64,000 nt of DNA from positions 1 to 64,000 of the forward strand of contig NW_021833238.1 of NCBI RefSeq assembly GCF_006345805.1. The letters run 5' to 3'. Every line of letters starts with the position of its first letter. Positions within the stretch are counted from its first letter, which is position 1. Origin of the DNA: Octopus sinensis. Lineage: Eukaryota. Under the pieces are notes generated by a model, which was given only the letters and a program-made list of their open reading frames with translations, was not told the origin of the DNA and made no database searches. Positions 32,697 through 56,525 of this stretch are shown one piece after another. Made by a program: the position numbers and the translations under genes.

Positions 32697-33073
<377 letters not shown>

Positions 33074-33328
33074 GATCCAGAAATAAATTTTTTGTAACTA
33101 AACACTTTCAAACTTCGGACACTGGTAGAATGTGTCATATAAAAGATCTTTTACTCTTTGTGTTGTTAAGAAAGGTTTATATTTTCAAAGTTATTTCGTG
33201 TTAAAATTGTATTTTAAACAAACAGCAATTGTTTCATTGCAGAAACAGAAATGAAGTGTAGGCAAGCAACAACTAATAAAATGTATTTATAGGATTTATC
33301 AAGTATGACTCTTCACAAGTATAACAAT

Positions 33329-34743: not shown

Positions 34744-34745
<2 letters not shown>

Positions 34746-35206
34746 GAACTAAACAGCTTAGACAGAAAGACAAGGAAGTTGCTAACTAGATATGGGTCAC
34801 TCCACCCAAAAAAGTGACACAGGCAGACTGTATGTAGCAAGAAAATGAGGGGGAAGAGGACTTATTGGATGTGAACACGGCATTAGAGAAGAAGAAAGCA
34901 ACATGGCATGGTATGTAAAAATGCCATAGAACCGCTATTATTAGAAGTAGGAAGGTCAGGCTTGTGTAGGATGAAATATTGCAAAGATAAAGCACTATAC
35001 AAGAAATTGAAAACGAATGTAACTGAAAGTAGGTGGGTAAAGAAAAGAATGCGTGGTCAATTTCATAGGGATGTTGAAGATAAGACAGACAGAAAAAAAA
35101 ATGACTGTGGATGACTAAACGTGATTTAAAACCGGAAGTGGAGGCTCTAATCTGTGCTGCCCAAGAGCAAGAACTAAGAACAATCTACATAAAATACAGA
35201 ATAGAC
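34744..35206 (+). mobile_element. R4/Dong-clade LINE fragment, family 1
   Basis: LDRKTRKLLT..LHPK, RLYV..GGRGL, MRGQF, LKPEVEALICAAQEQ; 5' end abuts (AAT)n. Confidence 0.85.
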
Positions 35207-36230
35207 TCCACTTAAGGGCAGAAGTAGCAGGATTATACCTGACTAGAAAGGAAGGTGAAGGAGAGTTAATATCAGTAGAAGACTGCGCGGAGTTAGCGAG
35301 AGTAGATATAGACTCCTAAGAAGAAAGTTTTTTAAATACTGCAAGAGTCACAGCAAGACATAACGAAACCGTAACCCCAAACAAACTTAAAAATCAGACA
35401 AAAGTACAGAAATTATCTGACTGACAGGAGAAGGCGTTGCATAGTAGATTCCCAAAGATATTTGCAGCAAATAGTAGTAATGAGACACGGTTATAGTTAC
35501 AGAAAGGAAAGCTGAAGAGGGAGACAAAAAGTTTGTTAGTAGCTGCATAAGATCAAGCATTAAAGACTAATTGGATAAAAGCCAAGTTAGACAAAAATCA
35601 AGTATATTTCCAATAAAGGTTATGCAAATCAAAGGAGGAAAACGATATTCATATAGTAAGTGAATGTAGCATGCTGGCACAGAAAGAATACAAGAAAAGA
35701 GACAACGATCTAGGGAGAGTAATCCACTAAGAGCTATGGAGAAAGATAGGATTTGAAAATTCTGATAAATGATACTAGAAAGTAAGAAATACAAGATGTT
35801 GTGGGACGTTAACATTTAAATACTGACAGAGTATTAGAAGCTAGAAGGCCTGATTTGGAAGTAGTAGGTAAAGACAATAGAAAGTGCCAGATAATTGACT
35901 TTACAGTCCCAAATAATGAAAACATTAATATGAAAAATATAGAAAAAATAGCAAACTACCAGGACCCATGTATTGATTTACAGAGACTATGTAAAGTGCG
36001 GATAAAATGTATCCCAGTAGTTATAGGTGCATTGGGAACTATCGCTAAAGATCTGAACAGAAGGATAGAGGAAATAGGCATAACACCCAGTTTAGTACAA
36101 CTCCAGAAAACAGTGTTATTAGGGACAGCTAGGATACTTAGGAGGGTTCTTGGCATCTAAGGTTACTTGTTGTTGCCCGATGTTAGGATTTTTTCTTTTC
36201 CAACAGTCTAACCAGACTAACAGTGATGAT
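35206..36230 (+). mobile_element. R4/Dong-clade LINE 3' part, family 2 (restriction-like endonuclease region)
   Basis: RRPDLEVV...IIDFTVP...KIANYQD...IPVVIGALG...LQKTVLLGTARILRRVLGI* (ORF 35855-36160); ends in (AAT)n. Confidence 0.88.
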
Positions 36231-36442: not shown

Positions 36443-36469
36443 AATAATAATAATAATAATAATAATATA

Positions 36470-36537
<68 letters not shown>

Positions 36538-36568
36538 AATAATAGTAATAATAATAGTCATAATAATA

Positions 36569-36599
<31 letters not shown>

Positions 36600-36604
36600 T
36601 GATG

Positions 36605-36670
<66 letters not shown>

Positions 36671-36673
<3 letters not shown>

Positions 36674-37089
36674 GACCTACTCATTGAAATTAAAGACCTA
36701 CTCATTGAAACTAAAGACCTACTCATTGAAACTAAAGACCTACTCATTGAAATTAAAGACCTACTCATTGAAATTAAAGACCTACTCATTGAAATTAAAG
36801 ACCTACTCATTGAAATTAAAGACCTACTCATTGAAATTAAAAACCTACTCATTGAAATTAAAGACCTACTCATTGAAACTAAAGACCTACTCATTGAAAT
36901 TAAAGACCTACTCATTGAAATTAAAGACCTACTCATTGAAATTAAAGACCTACTCATTGAAATTAAAGACCTACTCATTGAAATTAAAGACCTACTCATT
37001 GAAATTAAAGACCTACTCATTGAAACTAAAGACCTACTCATTGAAATAAAGACCTACTCATTGAAATTAAAGACCTACTCATTGAAATT
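36671..37089 (+). repeat. 21-bp tandem array x20 (aaagacctactcattgaaatt) derived from the Dong ORF
   Basis: Unit reads KDLLIEI; the last unit continues in frame into EKMWHLKEV. Confidence 0.95.
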
Positions 37090-37440
37090 GAGAAAATGTG
37101 GCATCTCAAGGAGGTTACAATACCAGTGATCGTAGGAGCACTAGGACTGATCAAGAAGGGAACCGAAAATTATATGAGAATGATCCCTGGCGTACCATCA
37201 CTGCAAGAAGTGCAAAATATTGTCTTAACTGGTACATCACACGTATTGAGAAGAGCATTGTCGATGTGAGAACTGTTGCTGCTCATGTATTTTAATTTAA
37301 CTTAAAAAAAAAAAAAATGAACGAACTATTGAGTTTGGTTTAATGGCCTACCAATATATACTATGAGTTTCTTTGCCCTAGGAGTCGGGAAGACACTCGG
37401 CAAGAAATGGAAGCAAATTTGAAAGAAGAAAAAAAAAGTA
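37069..37440 (+). mobile_element. 5'-truncated R4/Dong LINE 3' end, family 4
   Basis: KDLLIEIEKMWHLKEVTIPVIVGALGLIKKG...LQEVQNIVLTGTSHVLRRALSM* (stop 37267-37269), UTR, then (AAT)n; a related 67-bp 3' end follows at 37455-37521. Confidence 0.88.
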
Positions 37441-37533
37441 ATAATAATAATAATCTGCCATAGGTGTATGGAAAACACTCGGCGAGAAACGGAAGAAAAT
37501 TTGAAGAAAGAAGGAAAAAACATAATAATAATG

Positions 37534-37610
<77 letters not shown>

Positions 37611-38149
37611 AAGAAAAGAAGAAGATGATGAAGAAGAAGAAGAAGAAGAAGAAAAGGAAAAAGAAGAAGAAGAAGAAGAAGAAGAAGAAGAAGAAGAAGA
37701 AGAAGAAACAAAAGAAATGAAGGAAGGGAGGTATATTTGATGAACGATTATAGATTAAAGAATAGAGTTCGTTGCCAAGTATACGCTTTCTTTTCATTTA
37801 ACAATCACTGGAAACTTTCCTGTCATCTCAGTTCGTTATTTTTGGCTTGTTCGTTATTTTCTATTTTATTGCCTTATTAGCTTCTGTAAGGTAATAAGAC
37901 GACTTGGGAATGTAATACCAGGAAGGTTTTGAGTAAATACTACAAAGCGTAGTTGTGGTATACCTTACTGATTCTTAAAATTTATTTAGCAAATCAATAT
38001 CGCTCTTACGTTCGATTTTGAATTTGTTTGGCAAGAATATTGATCTGGAAGTGTGTTGTAACCAATATAGTTATATATGGAATAAGTAAAGAGAAAAGGC
38101 TTAAATAAATGGCTAAGTATAATAATAATATAATATAATAATAATAATA

Positions 38150-38187
<38 letters not shown>

Positions 38188-38257
38188 AATAATACCAACA
38201 ATAATAATAATAATAATAATAATATAATAATAATAATAATAATAAAATAATAATAAT

Positions 38258-39159
38258 AAAGACCTACTCATTGAAATTAAAGACCTACTCATTGAACTAA
38301 AGACCTACTCATTGAAACTAAAGACCTACTCATTGAAATAAGACCTACTCATTGAATTAAAGACCTACTCATTGAAATTAAAGACCTACTCATTGAAATT
38401 AAAGACCTACTCATTGAAATTAAAAACCTACTCATTGAAATTAAAGACCTACTCATTGAAACTAAAGACCTACTCATTGAAATTAAAGACCTACTCATTG
38501 AAATTAAAGACCTACTCATTGAAATTAAAGACCTACTCATTGAAATTAAAGACCTACTCATTGAAATTAAGACCTACTCATTGAAATTAAAGACCTACTC
38601 ATTGAATTAAAGACCTACTCATTGAAATAAAGACCTACTCATTGAAATTAAAGACCTACTCATTGAAATTGAGAAAATGTGGCATCTCAAGGAGGTTACA
38701 ATACCAGTGATCGTAGGAGCACTAGGACTGATCAAGAAGGACCGAAAATTATATGAGAATGATCCCTGGCTTACCATCCCTGCAAGAAGTGCAACAAATT
38801 GTCTTAACTGGTACATCACACGTATTGAGAAGAGCATTGTCGATGTGAGAACTGTTGCTGCTGCTCATGTATTTTAATTTAACTTAAAAAAAAAAAAAAT
38901 GAACGAACTATTGAGTTTGGTTTAATGGCCTACCAATGTATACTATGAGTTTCTTTGCCCTAGGAGTCGGGAAGACACTCGGCAAGAAATGGAAGCAAAT
39001 TTGAAAGAAGAAAAAAAAAGTAATAATAATAATAATCTGCCATAGGTGTATGGAAAACACTCGGCGAGAAACGGAAGAAAATTTGAAGAAAGAAGGAAAA
39101 AACATAATAATAATGATAATAATAATAATAATAATAATATATAATAATAATAATAATAA

Positions 39160-39190
<31 letters not shown>

Positions 39191-39742
39191 AAAAGAAGAA
39201 GATGATGAAGAAGAAGAAAGAAGAAGAAGAAGAAGAGAAGAAGAAGAAAAGAAAAAAGAAGAAGAAGAAGAAAAAGAAGAAGAAGAAGAAAAGAAGAAGA
39301 AGAAAAGAAGAAGAAGAAGAAGAAGAAGAAGAAACAAAGAAATGAAGGAAGGGAGGTATATTTGATGAACGATTATAGATTAAAGAATAGAGTTCGTTGC
39401 CAAGTATACGCTTTCTTTTCATTTAACAATCACTGGAAACTTTCCTGTCATCTCAGTTCGTTATTTTTGGCTTGTTCGTTATTTTCTATTTTATTGCCTT
39501 ATTAGCTTCTGTAAGGTAATAAGACGACTTGGGAATGTAATACCAGGAAGGTTTTGAGTAAATACTACAAAGCGTAGTTGTGGTATACCTTACTGATTCT
39601 TAAAATTTATTTAGCAAATCAATATCGCTCTTACGTTCGATTTTGAATTTGTTTGGCAAGAATATTGATCTGGAAGTGTGTTGTAACCAATATAGTTATA
39701 TATGGAATAAGTAAAGAGAAAAGGCTTAAATAAATGGCTAAG

Positions 39743-39778
<36 letters not shown>

Positions 39779-39827
39779 TAATAATAATAATGATGATGAT
39801 GATGATGATGATGATAATAATACCAAC

Positions 39828-39871
<44 letters not shown>

Positions 39872-39887
39872 TAATGATAATAATAAT
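38258..39887 (+). repeat. Tandem duplicate of 36671-38257 (~1.6 kb)
   Basis: Same 20-unit array with the same variant order, Dong end, (AAT)(AAG) tract and unique DNA; differs mostly by 1-bp indels. Confidence 0.92.
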
Positions 39888-39889
39888 GG

Positions 39890-40152
39890 CTTCTTTTATT
39901 TGCCACCAGGGCGAACGATGAGTGTGGACAATACAAAGACATACTTAGGGTGCATCAAAAGCCACGGCTTGCCTAAGCTGCCACTCAGAGGGAGCTGACA
40001 GCAGATTGACCGCCTCGCCATTGGAACGCGTCCCTTCCACAAGAACATGAACAAGAGACGTTCCAATTGATCAAGCAATAACTGGGGTAAAGCACGACGG
40101 TTAGACAATAAATGATAACGGAGGCGATGTAGGCTTTCACCACCTCTGCCCG
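39890..40152 (-). mobile_element. Internally deleted Tx1/L1 fragment
   Basis: LERLLFMFLWKGRVPMARRSICCQLPLSGSLGKPWL, homologous to 14476-14590, joined directly to a 3' tail gccctggtggcaaataaaagaa. Confidence 0.8.
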
Positions 40153-40512
40153 ATTATCTGACTGATAAGAGAAGGCTTTGCATGGTGGATTTCCAAAGAT
40201 AGTAGCGGAAAATAGTAATAGTGAGACATAATTGTGGTTCCAGAAAGGAAGACTGAAACAGAAGTTTATTAATAGCAGCTCAAGACCAGGCATCGAGAAC
40301 TAACAGGATAAAAACTAAGACAAAAATCAAGTAGATTCCCAATGTAGGTCATGTAAATCAATGGAAGTGTCAAATAATCGGACACAGATGGGATACAAAA
40401 AAATATATGACAACCTATAGAGGATAATCGTCTGGGAGGTATGTAGAAAGCTAGAACTTGACCACATTGATAAGTGGTATGAAAACGAACCTAGTAAAGT
40501 GCTAGAAAGTGC
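40152..40512 (+). mobile_element. R4/Dong fragment related to family 2
   Basis: Aligns by eye with 35412-35790 (EKALHG, AAQDQA, WYENEPSKVLE). Confidence 0.75.
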
Positions 40513-41662
40513 TGAACCCGAAACCACAAGGCTGCAAAGTGAGCTTCGCTTTTATCAAAAGATGTACGATCAAACTTTATAGGCGGATACTCTAAACATA
40601 TTACTGTTATTGCTTTTATATACGTTAAAAAAGTATAGTGAAATAAATTCCACCGCGAATTGTACATGGTGAGTTAGCTAAAGTCTTGTAGTAAATCATC
40701 TACTGTCATTTACTTACGACTACACTAAATTAACCACCATTTTTGTTTTGGCTATAAAATTATTTTTATAACTGTTGGAGGGGGATCGAAGGATTGTTTT
40801 ATACGTTAAAGTACGGGCACTATTCAGTTACGTCCCTCTACGCCCTGGCTCTGAACCTAATCGAAATTTATTTCCAGGTACGATATAGAATCGCTAACTG
40901 TAGCTCCTAAAGAGTTCTATTACAGAGTGTGAAAATGGAGGTTAATAATTTAAAGAGGGATCAACAGAATGACATAAAAAAATGAAAAGGAAGAAAAGAG
41001 ACTCAATTCAAAATTTACCTCGTAGTTTGATTAGAAAAACAAGATCCTAAAGGTTAGCGACTCCCAAAGAAAGGAGAAAATTTTATAAAATTAAGAAATA
41101 TTTTCATAAAATTCATTGACATTCGAGTGAGGAAAGGTAATCTTTACAAATACGAAAGGAGAGAGCTCCGGACATGTTTCAGTCCTATTGTTCCTCATTA
41201 GCATAGCATAGTTAAACTCAGGTCTGCTTTATCAGTTTAGAAACAATATTACATGCAAAGAGTTGCAAAAATGTTTGTTAGTAGTAATTTGCATAATTAA
41301 GAAAAAATAATTAAATGAGCCACATGAAATAATTCATATGGGTAAATAGCATGCAGTTAGAAAATTAAGTTAAGGTGATATACTAAATGATGCATACAAA
41401 AATATCTTTGTTAATTAAAAACCTCTTTATTGGAGAAAGAAAAGAAGGATCTAGCGGTAATTCTTAGCCACTATCCAAGAAAAGGAGCGATAATTTGCAC
41501 CCATCATTTAATATGTCGCCCTTTACCTCATCTAAATCCAAGCTATCGGCATATTTGAGATATTTCATTCTGTTCATTTTATTTATAATTGTGAAGAACA
41601 TTTGATCAAAAGGCCGGTCTCTCTTCTTGATAAAGAAATTCATCACAGTAATTTTGGTTGAT

Positions 41663-45546: not shown

Positions 45547-46575
45547 GAGAAGTCAAGAATTATCCGCACTTTTGCCATAACATATCCTTATTATGTCACA
45601 CTGCCTTCTGCGCATGCGTGCTTATAGTCGGTACTATTGTGGTCACGTGATCAAAGTTTGGGCTTCATCGAGCCGTTTTTTCTTTCTGGATTTACAGTGT
45701 AAGCATGGCCGCTCCACTACCAATGGGCACCAAAGAAGAATAAAGAGCAGTGATCAGATTTCTCTGGTCGTGAGGGGTGTCAGGTGCTGAAAATCATCCA
45801 CGATGAGCTCGGCTTCTATAAAACCTGTGCAAGATGGGTGTCAAGAGAGCTTACTGCAGAGAACAACCGCAAATACCTTGAGGTTTGCCAACGTTTACTC
45901 GATCGCTACAAGAATGAGGGCGAGGAATTTTTGAACAGAATAGTCGCAGGAGATGAAACGTGGGTCCATCATTATGAGGCAAAAGCCAAAAGACAGAGTC
46001 TGGAGTGGAAACATCCTGGCTCACCAGCGACGAAGAAATGCAAGACTCGGTCTTCTGCAGGAAAGGTGATACTAAGGCTTTTTTGGGATTCAAAAGGTCT
46101 ATACTGGAAGATTACCTGGACAAGGGTGTACGATCAACAGTGCAAGATACAGTGCTTTGCTGGCCAACCTAATGAAGCCAGCATTTCGCACCAAACGCCG
46201 AAGCCTATTGTCGAAAAAACTGTTTTGTTGTTGCATTACAATGCATGCCCACCCACGGCCGCCCAGACCGTTGAAGCCATTAACCAAATGTGCTAAATAG
46301 TTCCGATGAATTTTAGAACCTGGCACACCTTCTGACAAGAGAAATCGGATCACTGCTCTTTGTTCTTCTTTGGTGCTCATTGCTAGTGGACCAGCTATGC
46401 TTACACCGTGAAGCCAGAAAGAAAAATGGCGCGATCAGGCTCAAAGTTCGATCACGTGGTCACAATGGTACTAACTATAAGCGCACATGCGCAGAAGACA
46501 GTGTTTACAAAGCAGTTTTTACAATAATAAAGATATGTTATGGCGAAGGCACGGATAATTTTTGACTTCCCCTCG
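45546..46575 (+). mobile_element. Mariner derivative made of two inverted 5' ends around a deleted transposase core
   Basis: TA flanks, TIR cgaggggaagtcaaaaattatccg; ORF 45784-46296 ARWVSREL, VAGDETW, AGKV..FWDSKG; minus ORF 46380 MSTKEEQRAVIRFL. Confidence 0.92.
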
Positions 46576-55284: not shown

Positions 55285-56525
55285 TACTTGATACTTTGAT
55301 AGGTTTCGGCCATTATTGGCCCAGGCCATGTCTAACTTAATAGCACCACCTGGTGAAGTCTTTCAAGTCAGAATTTGGGCACTATGGCCCACTCAAGTAG
55401 AGAGTTATTGTTTACAGAGACATATCCGGGTGTAGGGGGTTTATCCGGGATTTCTTGAAGGAATCTGTCCAAAGACTTCTTGAACCCTATAGGGTCAGTT
55501 TCTGTTTTAATGTTGTTGGTGTAATGTTAAAGAGAGCGGGGCCAATTGAGGTGAAATAATTGTGCCGTATTGTTTTTTATGAGATGAGAGTGCGATTTTT
55601 GTTTGTGGCGGATGGCACGGGGCCCAAGCCTTGGATGTACTTAAAGGTGATGCCAACATCATTTGGGCAATGCTGATGGAATATTTTCCACATCATGCAG
55701 ATGATGTAGCGCTCACGACGACGTTGGAGAGAATAGAGTTTTAGCTTTTCTAGTCGACCCCAATAGTCGAGGCCTGTCATGCCATCTATCTTTTTTGTGA
55801 TTGGCCCTTGAGGTGCTTCAACTTTTATGATACCTTGTATTGTGTGGGGAGACCACAGTGGACAACAGTATTCAAGGTGGGGTCGGGCAAAAGTGGAGAA
55901 GAGAAGGATAATGGTGTGGATATCTCTCGACTGGAAAGTTCTGGAATCCAGGAACACATTCTGCGGGCCATGTCAACTTTGGTGTTTATATGAGTGGCCC
56001 AGCTTACGTTGTTGTCCACAATTACTCCCAAGTCTCTGATGTTGTTGGACGCCGCGAGAGTTTCACCTGAAGGAAGGGAGTATGGGAGTTTCAGGGCATC
56101 CTCTTTTCCAAAGTGGATTAGCTCAAATTTATCCTCGTTCAGCAGCATATTGTTTTTTTCTGCCCATTGGATAACAGCCAGTAGATCTGACTGAAGGCAT
56201 GTCCGGTCACTCGCCTCATTTATGACCTTCTGTAGCTTGGAGTCATCTGCAAAGATTTTTATGTTGCTGTGCTTGATGATGTCATTAATGTCATTAATGT
56301 AAATGATGAAAAGAAGTGGGCCCAGCACAGTTCCTTGCGGAACGCCACTACTGACTTTGGCTGGGCTTGATTTTACCCCTTCAACTACAACATGTTGAGA
56401 TCTGTCTGTCAGGAAACACTTAATCCATTTCAGTAACTTTCCAGAGACACCAAATCTGTCTGTCAGGAAACACTTAATCCATTTCAGTAACTTTCCAGAG
56501 ACACCAATCTGTCTGTCAGGAAACA
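55285..56525 (-). mobile_element. 5'-truncated CR1-group LINE (RT C-terminal half) in (TA)n
   Basis: SGVPQGTVLGPLLF, FADDSK, RDLGVIVD, RPHLEYCCPLWSP, LYSLQRRR; 3' tail tatcaaagtatcaagta. Confidence 0.93.
56400..56525 (-). repeat. 54-bp unit x2.35 at the CR1 5' truncation point
   Basis: Units 56400-56453, 56454-56506 and partial 56507-56525. Confidence 0.92.

Follow-up and report, generated by a model that had tools for sequence, protein, structure and literature searches.

The window analysed here, 64,000 nt of Octopus sinensis DNA, opens a short unplaced contig (NW_021833238.1; 83,998 bases) in a 2.72-Gb assembly. It contains a 21-nt unit repeated 20 times head to tail (TRF score 798, 97% matches), flanked on the 5′ side by an (AAT)n tract and on the 3′ side by the final 370 nt of a young R4/Dong-like LINE (Table 1). 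Decomposition of the array yielded 14 standard units among the 20, four units with a C at the joint (36711, 36732, 36879, and 37026), a single 20-nt unit (37029-37048), and a single unit with an internal G>A (36842). The final unit is in frame with the ORF of the element (DLLIEIEKMWHLKEV...RRALSM*; stop codon 37267-37269). TRF and the decomposition both bear out the preliminary description of this DNA, which had placed 20 copies of 21 nt, the last of them in frame, between (AAT)n and a 5′-truncated element. The exact unit-unit joint has 22 matches in the assembly, 21 of them in the window, and a reversed-pattern control gave 0 matches; because the exact joint recurs at one other locus only in 2.72 Gb, a chance origin of the array is excluded.

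Table 1 Features of the array locus, its flanks, and a second LINE junction in the window
Feature	Position	Strand	Remarks
(AAT)n/(GAT)n tract, upstream target	36443-36670	+	ATAA common to the tract and the start of the first unit
20 copies of the 5′-terminal 21 nt of the insert	36670-37088	+	Last unit passes directly into the element
Single ORF, 3′ end, for the C-terminal portion of the restriction-like endonuclease domain	37068-37269	+	R4/Dong-like LINE
3′ UTR of the element with internal A-run	37270-37439	+	
(AAT)5, tail or downstream target	37440-37454	+	
Short stretch like the 3′ end of the element, then (AAT)n(AAG)n	37455-37521	+	Stretch also lies upstream of L119
Whole ~1.6-1.75 kb block, second copy	38119-39887	+	Second 20-unit array at 38258-38670
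CR1-like LINE 5′ junction after (AT)n	56400-56525	-	Partial unit, extra 54-nt unit, and body copy; joint T/TT

We read the short stretch downstream of the (AAT)5 as the 3′ remnant of a sister family of greater age. Dong-like fragments that are older and belong to other families, nested in (AAT)n, lie at 32900-33110, 34745-36160, and 39890-40520, among them an endonuclease-like C-terminus (35813-36160). Overlapping ORFs on both strands at 45754-46434 have, by their motifs, the look of what we presume to be a decayed mariner transposase.

The block that holds the array (36536-38257) is present a second time, which the preliminary description did not include. The unique part of the two blocks (412 nt) differs by 0 substitutions and 1 indel and the LINE part by 5 substitutions, and the two arrays are 1 substitution and six 1-nt deletions apart, the deletions being in the second. 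Both arrays have 20 units in the same order save one joint. Either the block was recently duplicated in tandem or a haplotype has been falsely duplicated, and both arrays were counted as one locus. Truncated elements in their entirety, or blocks at a junction, were frequently repeated in tandem (x2 to x4; 0.1-1.7 kb) between microsatellites (L110, L151, L217/L218, and L123), which represents either true duplication or assembly error.

Contigs from short reads of run X16 contained the unit-unit joint at a summed depth of ~1,775 and the C joint at 165.5, and the array is therefore not a pure assembly artefact; run X16 may be the source sample, hence no independent support. Contigs of run X1 showed two other joint types only, which match locus L157 on contig C4, and no exact window joint. 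The joint was present at depth 8 in X2 contigs, and X3 and X4 contigs had no exact joint, with the reservation that such contigs show presence, not absence; in X1-X4, a missing insertion and a single-unit allele are not distinguishable. An assembly artefact, or descent from a source element that already bore an array, is an extremely improbable explanation. An artefact would suit the short unplaced contig and the second block, whose 1-nt deletions are typical of long-read error, but the X16 contigs hold both the joint and its C variant, and comparable arrays lie on the large contigs C1, C11, and C13. Inheritance would suit the identical units at several loci, but 1,746 copies of the family read through the site of the array, and loci that share a unit differ in their subfamily, as described below.

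Reiterated 5′ junctions in the LINE family

At least 1,196 candidate copies of the 370-nt body exist genome-wide, the best of them 96-98% identical, and 2,327 exact matches to a 34-nt 3′ anchor were found. Long copies of the family exceed 4.1 kb and are 98-99% alike; a natural near-full-length copy (L084) served as the ruler sequence. The reverse transcriptase (RT) of L084 matches RVT_1 (E=1e-29), and among solved structures R2 proteins come closest to it (E=3.5e-28). C-terminal of the RT, P0002 contains motifs (CRFC..H..SGC, HD, KPDIVV..LIDMSIP..K..KY; by eye) that we take to be a CCHC knuckle and a restriction-like endonuclease (RLE) of the PD..D..K type. The match to zf-RVT in the element protein was weak (E=0.007), the N-terminal piece P0003, where the R4/Dong clade has a diverged Myb/SANT domain and no zinc fingers, gave no significant Pfam match, and none of the 120 listed of 1,581 homologues was named Dong or R4. 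(AAT)3 occurred within 30 nt of 67/83 unselected 5′ junctions, and 3′ ends run into (AAT)n. TAA repeats are the described target of Dong (PMC7998251), and in Octopus, Dong-R4 LINEs are described as abundant, with recent activity (PMC13282606, PMC8967140). By RT type, endonuclease motifs, and (AAT)n target, the element thus behaves as an R4/Dong-like LINE, in agreement with the assignment to an R4/Dong element at TAA repeats in the preliminary description. Family copies that read through the site of the window junction carry a single unit, and an exact match to the intact site was found in 1,746 copies (a handful of these being last units of arrays). This rules out that the array is part of the family sequence, a possibility that the preliminary description had raised against its own reading.

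The frequency of reiteration was determined in an unselected sample, the first 100 of the 2,327 anchors, all on contig C1. Excluded were 6 copies with the junction beyond the fetched DNA, 7 extending past the 5′ end of the ruler, and 4 whole-block tandem copies, which left 83. The 5′-terminal segment was reiterated in four of these 83 truncated copies (4.8%; 95% interval 1.3-11.9%), a rate that holds for the subfamilies other than the one left out by the 34-nt anchor. The four cases were L074 (21 nt x2), L080 (10 nt x4), L117 (~20 nt x9), and L149 (9 nt x3). An apparent excess of one subfamily among the array loci was rejected as an artefact, as the anchor had left that subfamily out of the background. 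When internal windows were put through the same test, 15 of 1,548 matched, of which 12 were native to the ruler and 3 were chance 9-mers without insertion, leaving 0/1,548 true duplications. The junctions (4/83) differed from the internal windows (3/1,548) with a Fisher p=2e-4, or p=0.013 with all 15 internal matches. When 95,704 nt of element bodies were scanned for tandem duplications that were nearly complete, one weak 9-mer was found. In about 1 in 20 sampled truncated copies, the first 9-47 bases are repeated head to tail at the start of the copy.

Seven genome-wide probe patterns were also used, in each of which a 9-mer recurs every 13-26 nt; one was taken from the window unit, three from spaced positions, and three from positions where truncations cluster. 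Loci were counted after removal of unrelated repeats, which made up most matches of two probe runs, and after merging L203/L205 and L284/L315, each pair apparently one locus assembled twice; L160 was left out, its matched letters being the same as those of the non-element locus L159. The probes found 32 element-derived loci (14, 0, 3, 2, 2, 9, and 2 per pattern), one spaced probe having 0 element matches among 3. The reiteration was in the 5′ junction position in 31 of the 32, the sole internal one being L193. This enrichment at junctions in the sample and the probes, with units that vary by truncation point, is what the preliminary description had expected of a process tied to 5′ truncation. 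Copies truncated exactly at the window junction gave 18 matches at 15 loci, and five of the 15 were reiterated, compared with 0/1,746 site-spanning copies (p=2e-11); an internal duplication of period 13-26 at the window's site was found in none of the 1,746 spanning copies.

Of all reiterated junctions seen (n=37, counted by hand), 18 had two units and 12 had three to five; six to nine units were present in four, and 18-20 in three. The three longest are the window array (20 x 21 nt), L210 on C11 (19 x 19 nt), and L273 on C13 (18 x 21 nt), and the long arrays other than that in the window (9, 18, and 19 units) are built from different units. The four longest arrays (window, L210, L273, and L117) have periods of 19-21 nt, and three of them end at 18-20 units (~360-420 nt); this stop may be a geometric limit of the enzyme or chance.

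Unit boundaries, joints, and cycles of synthesis

Units measured 9-47 nt and derived from many positions in the element. Their 5′ start is common within 1-2 nt, and their 3′ ends can be up to 30 nt apart inside one array, as in the mixed-end arrays of L153, L190, L204, L207, L284, and L314; slippage of one unit is therefore insufficient to explain them. At 11 loci, a partial 5′-most unit is joined to the target (L117, L163, L165, L190, L197, L201, L203, L207, L210, L231, and L284). Most joints have 0-2 nt overlap or one extra base, and blunt joints occur in L074, L163, L197, L203, L206, L258, and L273. The window joint has an overlap of 1 nt, and the realignment on aat/att microhomology put forward in the preliminary description finds no support in such short overlaps. 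The joint base of the window array is T, C, or absent, and the att/act variant is exactly this base. The joint base was likewise the site of 8/11 variant types in six longer arrays (hand tally; p=6e-9; 3e-5 for a 3-base zone), so that the att/act variant is no evidence of the later unit duplication that had been read from it. Untemplated joint bases showed no strand bias (top-strand purines about equal to pyrimidines). Mixed ends and mixed joints therefore indicate several separate cycles of synthesis and release, as copying of one finished unit cannot yield them, and at least three to four re-priming cycles likely took place during insertion.

The same unit boundaries are found at independent loci, with 19-, 21-, and 26-nt units at 4, 3, and 3 loci, respectively. 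Because loci with the same unit carry markers of different subfamilies, they arose independently; the differing markers also rule out a single array-bearing source copy, and the identical units across subfamilies show that the boundaries are set by sequence, not descent. Truncation points cluster at AAT-like positions of the element (ruler L084, 3′ 600 nt). An RNA hairpin was considered as a pause site and rejected: a 5-6-bp hairpin lies just upstream of the site, yet the region is no more stably folded than shuffled sequences (z=+0.88).

It is also conceivable, although improbable, that insertion left a short mixed seed of 3-4 units and that most of the 18-20 units were added later by replication slippage or unequal exchange. 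Such growth would fit the heavy-tailed unit counts (18/37 loci with two units, three with 18-20), and an expanded 3-4-unit seed would likewise have variants at joints only. Hints of block copying come from L273, where four consecutive joints are G (p=0.027), and from the even, 5-unit variant spacing in L210 (p=0.07), but the spacing of the C joints in the window is unremarkable (p=0.24). The two window copies, alike in unit number and in order save one joint, and the young age of the element, which is 97-98% identical to its closest copies, also argue against expansion after insertion, and the seed itself would still require iterative synthesis.

Candidate enzymes and strands

On balance, we lean towards an origin of the 20-unit array during integration, by the element's own RT cycling on a fixed template end. 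Briefly, the prematurely ended cDNA would anneal to the upstream (AAT)n via 1-4 nt, and second-strand synthesis would start abortively, the short AT-rich duplex melting again. The released 3′ end would then re-land, blunt or with 1-2 nt, on the cDNA 3′ end, and one unit of 10-47 copied nt would be added per cycle until synthesis turns processive. The mirror image of these steps on the first strand would give an identical product. We tentatively place the cycles on the second strand, with a slight preference because landing of a blunt 3′ end would fit R2 chemistry and the microhomology priming proposed for R2 second strands (PMC3774820, PMC2718515). An R2-type RT is described to make a non-templated addition and then to jump, with +1/+2 overhangs, to the 3′ ends of templates (PMC8857657).

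Cycling on the first strand is the less probable form of this RT reading, and we consider it unlikely. Here, the RT would run off the 5′ end of a truncated RNA or pause at it, add 0-1 nt, melt ~20 nt, and re-prime on the same RNA before joining the target. The fixed 5′ boundary of the units fits such a run-off point, but a 1-3 nt further 5′ reach of the first unit in L258, L265, and L281, partly explained by target overlap, does not. The T/C joint of the window would be A/G on the cDNA, both of which could pair with a U at the landing site, and the extra T in the joints of L165 and L210 would represent a non-templated A, the base described as most often added by R2 RT (PMC8857657); L155, L190, and L314 have G/A joints, which suit the top strand instead. 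A group II intron RT switched to internal RNA positions in vitro (PMC3280974). Many joints are blunt, however, and for these precedent is better for landing on 3′ ends than inside a template. The missing stable RNA structure at the site (z=+0.88) also speaks against the first strand. The preliminary description had the RT re-copy the last 21 nt of the RNA, so that a minisatellite was born at insertion. Of this, the tie to the junction is retained and cycles at insertion are likely, and both the RNA strand and the RT remain proposals.

The window contains a second LINE with a comparable 5′ junction (Table 1). This LINE, presumably CR1-like judging by its motifs, encodes an RT (RVT_1 E=3e-12) and is very young, with copies up to 99.7% identical and 2,120 exact 3′ anchors; 29/29 other copies have a single unit. 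From 93 unselected anchors, 80 were scored (9 cut, 4 past the ruler), ~10 of which are subfamily breaks and not junctions. Seven were flagged: one true reiteration (L419, 19 nt x2), one sequence native to the element, and five cases of AT-repeat noise. The resulting 1/~70 is not different from the 4/83 of the Dong-like family (p=0.38). A CR1-like probe found one internal duplication, in a diverged subfamily. Reiteration after (AAT)n was further seen in other families (L021, L061, L077, L137, and L150). About one-fourth of the CR1-like anchors (L348-L437) belong to copies of only 33-45 nt that start just upstream of the anchor, possibly a non-autonomous partner or the product of a strong truncation site.

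The shared architecture at the CR1-like junction speaks against the RT and equally fits a host enzyme, and it takes away the specific role that the preliminary description had assigned to a Dong RT. As two LINE clades are affected, a host polymerase stays a candidate: an end-joining enzyme of the polymerase theta type could anneal, synthesise a short stretch, and release repeatedly while the cDNA is joined to the target (SD-MMEJ). We regard this as possible but somewhat unlikely. Occurrence of the reiteration in RLE-type and CR1-like LINEs and in other families after (AAT)n would follow naturally, as would the target-like AAT repeats between units in L162, L204, L222, L233, and L307. 5′ extra nucleotides of fish LINEs are reported to depend on the host cell (PMC4245944), and PolQ is reported to provide extra nucleotides at Drosophila cDNA junctions (PMC3280974). 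SD-MMEJ is described as multiple rounds of annealing and synthesis (PMC5728401) and, like the process considered here, leaves direct repeats at the break through annealing, short synthesis, and release (PMC5728401, PMC3280974). Its primer repeats are, however, mostly 1-4 nt (PMC5728401), whereas many joints here have none, and neither long in-register arrays nor frequent blunt joints are described in the accessible text of these two papers. For a polymerase of this type, the accessible parts of the literature contained no account of 19-21 nt being copied in register over 18-20 cycles. All four arrays of at least 9 units are Dong-like, though the CR1-like family was probed less.

Comparison with known systems

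5′-end joining and second-strand priming of LINEs are described as open questions (PMC3774820, PMC11371274). The nearest precedent is found in the legend of Fig. 5 of Eickbush, Burke, and Eickbush 2013 (PMC3774820), where R2 junction inserts include a threefold 20-nt repeat and shorter reiterations of 5′-terminal 28S-derived sequence, the multi-copy cases being left uncommented in the accessible text; a 13-nt tandem duplication is reported there for ~5% of the R2 junctions of flour beetle B. R2 is likewise an RLE-type element with reiterated 5′ junctions. The R2 cases, however, are described for full-length copies, are mostly single duplications, and are explained by ribozyme cleavage upstream in the 28S sequence (PMC3774820), whereas the arrays described here start at arbitrary truncation points, consist of element-internal units in up to 20 copies, and belong to a family at thousands of dispersed loci. 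In fish LINEs, 5′ extra nucleotides are copied from the flanks, are common in truncated inserts, and were proposed to stabilise end joining (Yamaguchi, Kajikawa, and Okada 2014, PMC4245944). Both systems have templated additions at the 5′ junction from element or target (here 31/32 loci, with AAT in five loci), but the fish additions are several nt long and host-dependent and the accessible text does not use the word 'tandem' (PMC4245944), in contrast to the ordered multi-unit arrays with a fixed boundary reported here. Terminal reiteration is absent from the four junction classes given for R2 insertions in human cells in the accessible text of PMC11371274 and PMC11331408. Elements with internal duplications were excluded in PMC2912911, as far as its accessible text goes, which makes that study uninformative here. 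RT template jumps, as far as they are described, resemble the present joints in their 0-2 nt overlap or extra base and in occurring serially, but target the 3′ end of another molecule, whereas here one terminal segment is re-copied. No account of long junction arrays or of their frequency was found in the literature covered, with subscription journals, figures, and supplements outside its scope, where one may exist.

Telomerase copies a short segment many times from one fixed template boundary. The same short template was also copied in tandem, in one event or more, in the arrays of 9, 18, 19, and 20 units. A dedicated template, a fixed unit, and an alignment region are not found in these arrays, whose units range over 9-47 nt with variable 3′ ends and 0-2 nt overlap. 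The bacterial DRT2 and DRT10 systems likewise copy a short segment many times (PMC12039810, PMC12632851). In contrast to telomerase and these systems as described, the LINE arrays have no dedicated template RNA or fixed unit, have only one end fixed, show little realignment pairing, and give no sign of function. The array is best read as resembling repeat addition in its working while being a by-product of integration, not a member of the telomerase type. It is a tentative proposal that a LINE RT performs processive, telomerase-like repeat addition in the germ line, in ~5% of truncated insertions and sometimes with 18-20 cycles per event, so that minisatellites are born full length.

Likely new here is the family-wide, junction-restricted reiteration that seeds minisatellites at LINE insertion; templated 5′-junction additions and up-to-threefold R2 reiterations were known before. 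It represents a frequent and concrete route to minisatellite birth. Should the RT be responsible, this would be repeat addition by a non-LTR RT within a genome, with a bearing on the origins of telomerase and on how faithfully junctions form in R2-based gene insertion; natural junctions in the thousands would record second-strand priming. From 2,327 anchor copies and a rate of 4.8%, the Dong-like family alone is expected to contain tens of arrays to a few hundred. The genome is thus a large natural record of LINE 5′ joining, with enough arrays to test strand and enzyme by joint-base statistics. Junctions of the same family also include 5′ inversions, short and long, of the snap-back or twin-priming type (L107 ~3700, L090 ~1450, and L104 ~3925).
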